Assembly: GCA_035221665.1 (NCBI GenBank)
Contig: CM069132.1
Location: 107,074,001-107,138,000, forward strand
Direction: 5' to 3'
Length of the DNA: 64,000 bases
Origin: Okamejei kenojei
Taxonomy: Eukaryota
The notes below the pieces were generated by a model that saw only the letters and a list, made by a program, of their open reading frames with translations, did no database searches and was not told the origin of the DNA. The position numbers and the translations under genes are program-made. This document shows positions 42,202-48,425 of this stretch, in pieces. Every line of letters begins with the position of its first letter. Positions within the stretch are counted from its first letter, which is position 1.

Positions 42202-42391
42202 ATCACAACACTTATCAATCACAAAGAAAAACCAAAGAAATCTGAGAAAACGTGGCGAGCAATTCAACGGGTCGGGCAAGCAGTGAGTTTGGCTGTTGGA
42301 AGATTTGTCGCTGTTGGTGAAGCCATAGCAAGTGAAAATGAAGAGTTAAAAGAAGAAATGTACTTTGCCTGTCAGGAGGCAAGGCAAGCAG
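42202..42391 (+). CDS. CTNNAL1: Alpha-catulin (catenin alpha-like 1), internal coding exon, probably exon 2
   Basis: ITTLINHKEKPKKSEKTWRAIQRVGQAVSLAVGRFVAVGEAIASENEELKEEMYFACQEARQAG closely matches vertebrate alpha-catulin as recalled (ITTLINHKDNTKKSDKTLQAIQRVGQAVNLAVGRFVKVGEAIANEN); pyrimidine tract and CAG acceptor ending at 42201; G|GTACGT donor at 42392; 190 nt, phase 0 to 1. Confidence 0.93.
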
Positions 42392-43945: not shown

Positions 43946-46574
43946 TCAGATGTTTCCTGCCCTTGTTTATATGTAAATATATTTTCGTTTCATCTGTATT
44001 ATTGATCCAAATTGTGTTAAAGAGTATTTGGATCATGCATGCACTTGATCAAAATGTTGGTGCTTCCTGGTATGGGCGTCATTTTTTTGAGGGGGAGAGG
44101 GAGATGTCAGGATTGGTTATTTTGCTTTTGATTGACAGCTTTTGCTACCATCTACTGAATCTTTGAATTGGTCGCTTTTATAATTTTATTTTATTTAGTC
44201 AGCAACACGTTAATAATTTGCCTTTTTCTTATTACCATTTTCATAGAACACCAAATGTTAAATGTTTTCATCATGTCTAGTGAGATGTCATAGAATTGTT
44301 AGGTGTCAGAAGGAGTCGGTCAGTCCATCATGTTTTGTGATCTACAATGGACACGATGTGCATCATTGACATGGTGTTGTATGGCTACCCTTCCAGTGAA
44401 CTGTGTGTACTCTCTACTGCTGAAGTTCTCTGTCAGGAGAGAAGTGTCAGAAAAAATATTGTGGTGTAAGTTTGAACAATGGAATAATAATGTGATCCTT
44501 TAATTTTGTCCTTCCAAACTTGGGTTCAGTTTAGATTAAATTGCACCAAGCGGCACTGGAATGATGTACAGCCTAGAAAACCCTATTAATTTCATTGTCA
44601 ATGCTAATATTGGAAACAGTATCAAATTACATCATACAATCATAGTATTGGTTTAAATACTTTGCCTGATTGATATGTGCTATTTCAATCAATTTTTTTA
44701 TTCAACATGATATTCTTTTTACCGTTATTCAAAAGTGGCCAAAATTGGTACAATTTTAATTTTGTAGCCCAAATTTTAATTCTTGCATCTACAGAATGCA
44801 AATGTGAAATTATTTTATTTTGTTAGTTTTAGTGTGTGTAGAAATCAAATAAATTTGGGGTTGTCAGAACTGACAACACATTAACTGAAGTCAGTCATAT
44901 TTCGGATTTAAATGAAAATGCTTTTGAAATGTTCATCATTCATGAACTGAATTTTAAAAAGACAAATGCAGACATAAAATCAGGCAATGGTATAGCAGGT
45001 GCCACATCTATTACTTCAGAAATTGAAGGAGAATAACAAATAGAGCTATTAAACTGAAATAGTAAAGTTATGCTACTCATTTTATTTGCAGCTGTATTTA
45101 TGATGAATTACCAACCGTTTATCTGAAGAATCCTATGCGTTTAGTTAATATGAACATGATTGAAGCCGAGCATTCTCTATGAATTGAAATTAAAATATTG
45201 CTTTGTTGCTGGCATTTTGTACACTCAGAAATCTTGCACAGCCTTTAATGTCTGGACAAGCAATTTGCAATTTCCGCCATCAGCAGCTGTGCTCAGTTGG
45301 GCACAGATAATGTTACCTGTACTGGGAAATGACCTTTCAGCACATCCATAGTTAACATTTGTTTTGAATTGTTGATCAAAGGTGACATTTAGGATCTATC
45401 TTCATAGTCTGCATATGTAGCGCAACAGATTAGCTATGTGTTGCAGTGAAATTGATTCCTGAAGCACCGTTGACGGGGCATCTGCTGAAGCTCAGAGCTG
45501 ATTAACGTTGAGAAAGGTTTGAAGGGCAATTGAAATAAATACAGTGTTGTAGTCACCAGACAACAAGGGAAATACAGTTCAACTTCTGAGCCAGATTTTA
45601 ATTCTTGCATTAAATAGCACTTGACATATGTTTGTAATCATTTCCCCAGGTTATTGTTATTTTTGGCTTCTCCTTTTAAGAATGACAGAAATGCACATTT
45701 GAATCTACACAATCTTTTTGATCAGGAGCCTGGAAGATTAACGCTTTTTTTTGCATGTTTAAGCTTTTAATGGAAGCATTTGATTCTCCTGTTCATCTGA
45801 ATATTAATATTAAATTAAAGTTTTTTTTTTCTTTTGATTTAAACACAGCCCTATTTTATAAAATAATCCTAAATTAGATGGTTTATTTCTTGAAATGTAT
45901 CTGCTTGGTGGAAACTGAATTGTGGAGAGCCAAATGCTATGTTGCCCACTTGTTGGATCGTGCAAGCTGCAAGATTGTTTTAACCTGCTGTTCTATGCTG
46001 GCATGGGGCTTTGTCAAAAAAGTGGCATTACAGTATATTCAGTTGGATCAGAGAACATGTTATAGTAGACATGAAGGAGAAGGTGCCTCAAATTTCCTGC
46101 CATACAATCGTTAGATTGGGGCAACAGAGGTGAAAACAAAGAATAAGATACTGTGTCTCAAGGGCCAAATCATTACGGTCAAATCATCAAAGTTTCAATT
46201 AAAAGTAAGCTGGAGCCATCTTAAGGACATTTTGAAGCTACACTGAGCAATTTTGCTGTAGAGTTCAGTGTAAAATGTGAAAAGGCATGTTGGTAATTGA
46301 ATTTATTTGCAAATTGTGGGCATGAACTGCAGGGTCCAACTGCAGCCAGCTTGTTGGTTTCCAGATAAATTAACAACATTGATGATAGATTTAATTATAA
46401 CTGCAGCAAGTGCGGACCCATTGGGCCCGGTCCCCCAATGCAATATTCCACCACTCACCCATAGCCCCCAACTGCGCAGGCGTGGCCGGCAAGTGGGAGC
46501 ACGACGCAACACTTTTTTAAAGTTTAAAATGGCAATAACTTGTAAAATATAAGATCAATGTGAATGCATCTCAC

Positions 46575-46915
46575 TTTCCCTCTTCCGTCCCCTACTCCCA
46601 TCCATTATTCTCCCTCTCCCACCCTCCACCATCCGTCCTCTGCTTCCTCCGCTCACCCCCTCCCTCCCCTCCTCCCTCTTCCTCCTCCTCCATTACCTCA
46701 CCATCCCTCTTCCTACCTCTATCCTCCTCCATTCTCCCTCATCCCCCAGCACTCCCTCCCCCTCCTCTTCACCCTCCCTCTTCTTTTCCCTCTCATCTCC
46801 CCCCATCCGATCCCCCCCCACTCTCCCTCCTCGCCTACCCTACTGCCCTCCTCTTCCTCTATCCCCCACTCCCTACCCCCTCCTCTCCCTCAATCCCCCC
46901 CACTCTCCCTCCGCA
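46575..46915. repeat. Polypyrimidine/polypurine low-complexity tract (probable captured HTRA2 intron 1 start)
   Basis: About 340 bp, strongly C/T-rich on the plus strand, directly after the donor site. Confidence 0.7.
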
Positions 46916-46916
46916 C

Positions 46917-47200
46917 CTCCTCAGGATCTCAATGTAAACCACCGCCGGCCCTGTTTTCTGCACCACATCGGCGATGAAGTTGCATTTGAGGCGGGGGCTG
47001 TCGGGGGGATGGGCCGAGCGGCCTGGAGCTAGGGAAGGGAGAGGCCGAGGCTGCGGCCTAGTCCTTGGCTCGGGTCCCGCTCCTCTCCCTTCCAGCGGGC
47101 CCGGACCAGCAGCGTCGCCGCCCTCAAACCCAGCCCCAGCCTCAGCGCCCAGGCCCCGGACCCCGCACCGGCACCAACCCCAGCCCAGGGCCCGGAGGCA
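46917..47200 (-). pseudogene. HTRA2: Captured fragment of HtrA2/Omi serine protease exon 1
   Basis: [31 protein letters not shown] versus recalled HTRA2 [28 protein letters not shown]; upstream frameshifted hydrophobic stretch [18 protein letters not shown]; phase-2 donor AG|GTGCGG at 46917/46916; no further exons seen. Confidence 0.8.
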
Positions 47201-47334
47201 GAAATAATTTGCACTGTGACGTTGTGACGCCAGAGATCCCCGTTGTGACGCGCACGGGAACCCTCCCCAACTGCGCATGCGTGGGTGGCAAGTGGGGGCG
47301 CTGTAAAATATAAGATTAAATATAAGATAGAGAG

Positions 47335-47430
47335 AGCAGATGCTGGTTTAAACTGAAGATAGACACAAAATGCTGGAGTAACTCTGCGGGGCAGGCAGCA
47401 TCTCTGGAGAGAAGGAATGGGTGACGTTTT
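47335..47430 (-). mobile_element. PLE-LTR fragment truncated at the hammerhead
   Basis: gcagatgctggtt...agacacaaaatgctggagtaactc...gggtgacgttt. Confidence 0.7.
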
Positions 47431-48425
47431 GATTTTTATTGATTTTATTGATTTATATTGATTTTTTCATGACGTCTAAGATTTGTTTCATTTATTTACC
47501 AATGCAGAATCTCTAATTATATCTTGACATTTAATTGCTCCTGTGATCTTTGCAAGGCTAGTGCACACATTTCATAAAACTGTTTTATTGCATTTTATTA
47601 CCTTTCATCAGGTTTTTTACTTTGAAGGATGCTGTGTAAGTGCAGTTGTTTTTAATCTATCACTGAGGATCACTTTTGAAACTCCTTCCATTGCTTTCTG
47701 TGTGAGTTTGTACTCTACTTTCCAGTCTTTGAAGACAGGATTTCCTGAGGGACACCCTAGGTCTTAGCACTCCAGGATTTCTTTTGGCTGCCCTTCCAGC
47801 CTGAACAAATAAAGTAGTGTGCTCTCTTATCCTTTATCCTCTATTTTTAACAAAGGTAATTTTCCTGGTTGCCACTAAGGGTTGCTTTACGATCTGTTGC
47901 TGTGGTTACTGTTTGAGGGATGAATACATCATCTGAAGCTTCTTTATACCAGAAAATGGTAGGTTTTTTTGTTCACTTTGAAGATTGTGACTTTTTTTTA
48001 GAAATTAATAATCTGCAATAAAATAAGGAGGAAATCAGCCTTTTTATCTCATAAACACAGAGGTTTTTTTTAATCAAAAGTCCACAGCATTGTTATTTTA
48101 TTGATGTTTCCGTCAAAGCATGTACCCAGAAAACAGAAATCATTAACTCAGTGATGCTCATTAAGTATAATGACATTTTATCATACAGTAGGCCGTTGAG
48201 TCTGTGCCGGTTTAAAATCTCACCTTCTGCAGGTCAGGACTAGCCAGATACACAACTGTTACCATAATTCAGTTTAAATGGTAAAGTTCATAGCACAGTT
48301 CTATATGAACTGGAAATGAATTATGCTACTCAACTAGAAACCTGTGTTTATTTGTGAGTGCGGTCATGTGTGCCAACAAGCAACTTAACTGGAAGGGACA
48401 TCTCGAGTATCCTCAAGATTGGTGT

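Follow-up and report, generated by a model that had tools for sequence, protein, structure and literature searches.

HTRA2 exon-1 sequence in a CTNNAL1 intron of a skate, carried by a putative non-autonomous Helitron family of high copy number

Among the gene-capturing Helitrons of bats, HelibatN3 and other elements are non-autonomous, start with 5'-TC, end in a hairpin followed by CTAG-3' and insert between A and T, and the HelibatN3 type carries a host first exon together with its splice donor in hundreds to about a thousand copies, as described in PMC4224331 and PMC4778049, which also state a bias of bat captures toward the 5' parts of genes. The Helraiser work (PMC4778049) defines Helitron ends, the AT target and the bypass of the 3' end. 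For Xenopus laevis, PMC12001565 reports Heli1Xen1 with 19 captured fragments at low copy number, 17 of which derive from a 5' end. In the skate Okamejei kenojei, the element analysed here likewise shows non-autonomous organisation, the same type of ends and target, and a host first exon with a donor in hundreds of copies. Unlike the HelibatN3 type, it resides in a cartilaginous fish and carries a coding piece, spanning about 80 codons in most copies and more in one subfamily; no start codon or promoter was found in the HTRA2 piece of the family, and its intron part is putative. With Heli1Xen1 it shares the Helitron1-type, non-autonomous structure and the capture of 5' coding fragments in a non-mammalian vertebrate, whereas that young frog family reaches at most 17 copies per fragment (PMC12001565) and the HTRA2 capture at least 235 copies at about 10% divergence. 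The type of capture itself is already known from bats and Xenopus; the skate family extends high-copy capture of first exons from bats and frogs to cartilaginous fishes, and adds a third vertebrate lineage to those showing the unexplained preference for 5' gene parts. No report of a Helitron with HTRA2, or from a skate or cartilaginous fish, was found in a literature search that covered subscription journals and repeat databases thinly. Overall, the observations are best explained by an old member of a non-autonomous, HTRA2-carrying Helitron family that has suffered a deletion at its 5' side, with a likely genomic capture and a likely functionless decay, a reading to which we assign a probability of roughly 0.88.

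Coordinates refer to the window, i.e. the whole 64,000-nt stretch of contig CM069132.1 that was analysed. The features discussed below are as follows.

42202–42391, plus strand: exon 2 of CTNNAL1 (alpha-catulin)
46401–47336, minus strand: non-autonomous Helitron copy with HTRA2 exon 1, its 3' end exact and its 5' end blurred by deletion (47327–47336)
46401–46404, minus strand: 3' terminus, GCAG where the family has CTAG; the flank beyond is AT-rich and begins with T at 46400
46413–46429, minus strand: subterminal hairpin at a distance of 12 nt from the end, its 7-bp stem including one G-T pair and its loop 3 nt long
46430–46574, minus strand: Helitron 3' subterminal module, its terminal part common to RepHel-coding elements
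46575–46916, minus strand: purine-rich tract, either derived from intron 1 of HTRA2 or already part of the family before the capture, present also in HTRA2-less copies
46915–46916, minus strand: GT at the HTRA2 exon-1 end, phase 2, window GTGCGG
46917–47149, minus strand: captured HTRA2 exon-1 coding piece, about aa 56–136 of the sawfish protein
46923–46924, plus strand: AG in CTNNAL1 orientation that may act as a cryptic acceptor, preceded by a stretch of about 345 nt with 88% pyrimidines
47150–47198, minus strand: low-complexity, GC-rich stretch, likely further upstream HTRA2 exon-1 sequence, common to the long-capture subfamily (15 of 67 copies)
47199–47319, minus strand: Helitron-internal module repeating 3' subterminal motifs (repeats D6 and D7), most similar to copy L045 (86%) and deleted further upstream
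47336–47431, strand not given: very high-copy repeat, presumably SINE/LINE-tail-like, adjoining the 5' end and shortened at 47336

As originally predicted, the insert is GC-rich, with a GC content of 0.6–0.76 against 0.3–0.45 in the flanks. The peptide encoded on its minus strand matches solved human HTRA2 (E 4e-9) ahead of HTRA1 and HTRA3 as well as shark and ray HTRA2 at up to 87%, which confirms its HTRA2 identity. All 12 proteins matched by the peptide in the database came from sharks or rays, and 10 carried the name HTRA2-like or a similar one; none of the matches listed in the protein searches was a skate-named HTRA2, the identity resting on orthologues from other species, and a metagenome scan returned no relative. 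The coding piece includes a hydrophobic LGLGL segment, the AARP motif and the start of the protease region. Its exon end lies in phase 2 at 46917 and is directly followed by GT (46916–46915), in agreement with the predicted phase-2 donor, and a whale-shark gene model that ends on HTRA2 exon 1 at IEILGR stops at the same residue. The column majority of 67 family copies restores an open frame that is 73% identical over 86 columns to aa 52–135 of Pristis HTRA2. This majority peptide includes the hydrophobic segment and the AARP motif, both absent from the paralogs of the genome, of which one matches over 28 aa. The presence of HTRA2 homology was thus borne out, but it is longer than the original claim, covering 46917–47149 and probably reaching to about 47198. 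Fifteen of the 67 copies, the window copy included, extend upstream in this way, while 25 have a shorter junction and 27 other forms; a low-complexity stretch in six loci may reach about HTRA2 codon 7. No exon-2 sequence follows the exon end in the copies inspected, and no further HTRA2 exons were found in or beside the window copy.

Rather than the single insert implied by the original prediction, of which the Helitron-borne HTRA2 exon 1 stands, searches of the genome revealed a family of hundreds. A 26-mer at the HTRA2 exon end occurs, with up to two mismatches, at 235 or more genome places, a lower bound, against 0 for the control. Using the HTRA2 part as a query gave 466 candidates, with 39 other places at 79–86% among the 40 scored; with the entire element as query, 5095 candidates were obtained and 40 of them scored. 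From 102 loci, 67 distinct HTRA2-bearing copies were kept. The family 5' motif is present in 40 of these 67, and relatives such as L005, L041 and L046 have a clean A|TC start. The 3' end was found in 40 of the 67 as well and reads CTAG in 28, with T as the next base in 26 of these 28. A hairpin folds at the subterminal site of 26 of the 40 ends, including that of the window copy, and family hairpins are slightly more stable than shuffled sequences (mean z −0.73). Termini are therefore shared across a repeat family, as the prediction had required. Among the 28 two-ended copies, 10 stand head-to-tail behind another element and 18 are free. In three of the free copies (L005, L046 and L041, the last with two small gaps close by), the two flanks, once joined, align to uninterrupted repeats across A|T without a duplication; this test gave no match for 14 of the 18 and was uninformative for one.

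The ends of the window copy itself are less regular. At the 3' side, a hairpin can form at 46413–46429 and T follows at 46400, as predicted, but the last bases are GCAG and not CTRR, and the hairpin alone is no better than shuffles (z −0.39 and −0.06); comparison with the family shows GCAG to be the mutated CTAG at the homologous position. The A|TC at 47327, proposed as the 5' terminus, could not be upheld as a canonical Helitron end. A motif search of the window found the family 5' start motif absent from this copy, and the repeat abutting it at 47336 lacks its usual tail, so the 5' junction (47327–47336) is blurred by deletion. The upstream part is closest to L045 (86%) and has lost sequence relative to it. 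Neither poly(A) nor a target duplication is visible at the window copy, in line with the original statement, and among the 25 longest of its 33 repeat pairs no inverted repeat joins the two ends.

The element encodes no transposase, and candidates for its mobilisation were found in the same genome, where 101 matches to Helitron_like_N are present. Four of ten fetched loci end 3–5 kb downstream in the hairpin-CTA/TG-type terminus of the family, and three of the ten have the family 5' motif upstream on the same strand. One of these RepHel-coding Helitrons (G000:C5, near 45.04 Mb) carries the HUH and YxxKY motifs together with PIF1 domains, its frame being broken. Unlike the window element, these Helitrons encode RepHel, broken at the C5 locus, and they share its terminal hairpin, CTAG end and subterminal motif, with a similar 5' motif. 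RepHel enzymes encoded by Helitrons that share its ends probably copied the family. The family termini, duplication-free A|T targets and RepHel partners with matching ends together corroborate the predicted Helitron membership, and the HTRA2 piece is almost certainly Helitron-borne. Judged by these sequence features, the family is assigned to non-autonomous canonical Helitrons of the Helitron1 type. Helentrons (Helitron2) are defined by a TT target and subterminal inverted repeats; this class was rejected, as the family targets A|T and not TT, and its subterminal repeats, including those of the window element, are direct and not inverted. By analogy with Helraiser (PMC4778049), mobilisation by RepHel may have proceeded through circular intermediates.

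The route by which HTRA2 sequence entered the family is less firmly settled. The original prediction had taken the retained donor and intron as evidence for capture at the DNA level. A purine-rich tract does follow the donor at 46575–46916 on the minus strand, as described, and the donor reads GTGAGG in 41 of 67 copies and GTGCGG in the window copy, with GT kept in 52 of 67. The tract, however, is a module of a wider family: of 30 loci selected solely for the tract, eight carry HTRA2 and 22 lack it, a tract-end 26-mer gives 478 matches against 235 for the exon-end 26-mer, and the GGGGAG-GTGAGG donor context recurs inside the tract of HTRA2-less copies. The presence of the tract in HTRA2-less loci and the recurring donor context weaken the argument from the retained donor and intron. 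These same observations, together with one subfamily in which the tract lies on both sides of the HTRA2 piece, favour an alternative in which HTRA2 RNA/cDNA or a short DNA patch was pasted into the tract of the Helitron via purine microhomologies at both ends, so that what looks like donor and intron would belong to the tract the Helitron already had, amplification still being due to the Helitron; retrogenes nested in bat Helitrons have been described (PMC4224331). We nevertheless regard such pasting as rather unlikely, since the switch falls exactly at the exon end with a good GTGAG donor, a position that cDNA would hit by chance only, and since poly(A), target duplication and exon 2 were not seen. 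Tracts of HTRA2-bearing and HTRA2-less copies are moreover equally diverged (9.6 vs 9.2%, p 0.92) and intermixed on the tree, which does not support a tract-first order. That tree (170 tract columns, 67 elements) is star-like with intermixed groups and 17 label changes, at least three of them forced; it was discarded as a test of whether the tract or the capture came first, as its shape gives no order.

We therefore think it probable that the HTRA2 template was genomic rather than RNA, because a good donor marks the exact end of the homology and neither exon 2 nor poly(A) nor a duplication was observed. Under genomic capture, a donor Helitron situated close to the GC-rich 5' end of HTRA2 would have taken up exon-1 DNA during rolling-circle copying, either by bypass of its 3' end or by a template switch at short purine microhomologies, and the captured DNA would then have been rejoined to the family 3' end. 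Later deletions and template switches could have produced the long-capture, short-capture, HTRA2-less and codon-7-reaching subfamilies, and the window copy would subsequently have inserted into intron 2 of CTNNAL1 and been partly deleted at its 5' end. Given an assembled parent locus, the nested subfamilies provide a natural series for models of capture.

Divergence from the family majority over the exon part has a median of 14.5% (11.1% at non-CpG sites) and amounts to 9.7% in the window copy, values that are biased low by the choice of the 67 copies for similarity in the exon region. The 3' junction of the window copy is common to four organisms, the source and three others (B, C and E). Single-copy flank contigs of the latter, 2–5% diverged, continue ungapped into the 3' end for 36, 44 and 58 nt, and an element with this end was thus in place before the four organisms split. 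All three also have contigs that match the HTRA2 part, and no contig bridging an empty site at the window insertion was present among the contigs of the other organisms examined.

The predicted setting in a CTNNAL1 intron was verified: exon 2 lies at 42202–42391 of the plus strand, and exon 3 follows at window-relative 69369, some 5.4 kb beyond the end of the window. The element lies in this 27-kb intron 2 with its HTRA2 piece antisense to CTNNAL1, and the gene cannot use the donor at 46916–46915 because it is on the minus strand; the suggestion of a cryptic exon through this donor accordingly finds no support. On the plus strand, 46576–46924 is a long stretch of pyrimidines that contains just one AG and closes with CAG at 46924, and the acceptor YAG is kept in 60 of 67 copies. 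Antisense intronic copies could, as far as sequence can tell, be exonised via this acceptor-like site. Co-option of the window copy or the family, as antisense or small RNA against HTRA2 or as a CTNNAL1 cryptic exon via the acceptor at 46924, would draw on this placement and tract, on the sharing of the insertion by four organisms and on small-RNA cross-talk to donor genes reported in maize (bioRxiv 10.1101/777037). It appears improbable to us, since the window copy has a weakened donor and is interrupted by a stop and a frameshift, its 9.7% divergence from the majority lies within the family range, sharing at 2–5% flank divergence is expected of a neutral insertion, and no strong plus-strand donor is evident by eye downstream.

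In keeping with decay, the coding piece of the window copy has a TAG at 47031, a 1-nt frameshift near 47008 and a 6-nt deletion near 47040. A crude frame filter was passed by 10 copies, two of which are in frame throughout by eye. Substitutions at codon positions 1, 2 and 3 in the last 30 codons amount to 11.5, 8.9 and 11.5%, and to 8.1, 7.0 and 8.2% without CpG, second positions being slightly more conserved than first and third. Rates and frame damage fit neutral decay in a sample biased toward well-matching copies. The proposed functional role thus found no support in the broken coding piece and the neutral-type substitution rates, and the window copy is likely decaying without function. 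Finally, an origin as a processed pseudogene or segmental duplication of HTRA2 with no Helitron link is hardly tenable: the window copy lacks a canonical 5' end and adjoins a retro-repeat, and the genome does hold a processed HTRA1-like pseudogene at another place, but hundreds of dispersed copies with common Helitron ends and unrelated flanks, together with the joined-flank matches across A|T, refute it in substance. The homology moreover ends at the exon-1 end, and no spliced junctions, poly(A) or target duplication were seen, nor any further exons in or beside the window copy.

Searches for the parent gene with full-length and exon-2-onward sawfish HTRA2, the latter with all 19 candidates scored, recovered HTRA1/3/4-like loci only, on C15, C1 and C38, together with an HTRA1-like retrocopy on C10; family copies crowd such searches. 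The three HTRA loci match HTRA1/3/4 references better than HTRA2, and exons 2–8 of HTRA2 were not found in the assembly. The C10 copy (L076, G000:C10:33218960-33219196) is a degenerate processed pseudogene of an HTRA1-like gene, which crosses an exon junction and has a stop. HSPA12B and LOXL3 are the presumed neighbours of HTRA2; a whale-shark fusion model (P0010) joins HSPA12B and HTRA2. In the assembly, a search for HSPA12B returned a C15 paralog only, and a lysyl-oxidase search gave five loci, none of them on C1 and none LOXL3-like. The region G000:C1:188.05–188.74 Mb holds a C20orf27-like gene and scaffold gaps at 188,089,416 and 188,677,244. The 600 kb searched beside C20orf27 on C1, outside 188.45–188.54 Mb, contained neither HTRA2 nor HSPA12B and included two 500-N gaps. 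A tandem unit of about 1.3 kb at G000:C1:188636059-188638908 gave three weak tblastn matches that are probably spurious. As HTRA2, HSPA12B and LOXL3 are all missing and scaffold gaps occur in the expected region, the absence probably reflects an unassembled GC-rich block, which is far likelier than loss. A true loss of HTRA2 from the lineage with its presumed neighbours HSPA12B and LOXL3 is decidedly improbable; if it were real, hundreds of Helitron-borne exon-1 copies would be the sole trace of a conserved mitochondrial protease gene. In either case, the copies record an exon that is missing from the assembly and can mislead annotation.

Several further observations concern the family as a whole. 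In the 3' flanks of 34 copies, for which base counts are given without a background control, T occupies position +1 in 32 and positions +7 and +8 in 19 and 22, while A is found at +9 to +12 in 25, 29, 25 and 21. This phased preference resembles the 5' end of the element itself and may explain the head-to-tail stacks seen in 10 of the 28 two-ended copies; a general preference for AT-rich 3' targets has been published for Helraiser (PMC4778049). The HTRA2 piece is tandemly repeated inside the single elements L015, L037, L044 and L048, consistent with slippage or template switching, and simple-repeat expansions of the GATA, GACA, ATCC and ATCT types occur at the 5' termini of L004, L007, L009, L035, L121 and L126. 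Lastly, a further module, marked by a CGCCATCTT motif and by CGGGTAAGT, which resembles a donor, lies upstream of the HTRA2 piece in L035, L068, L070, L128, L130, L135, L138, L147 and L148, and may represent the 5' end of a second captured gene.
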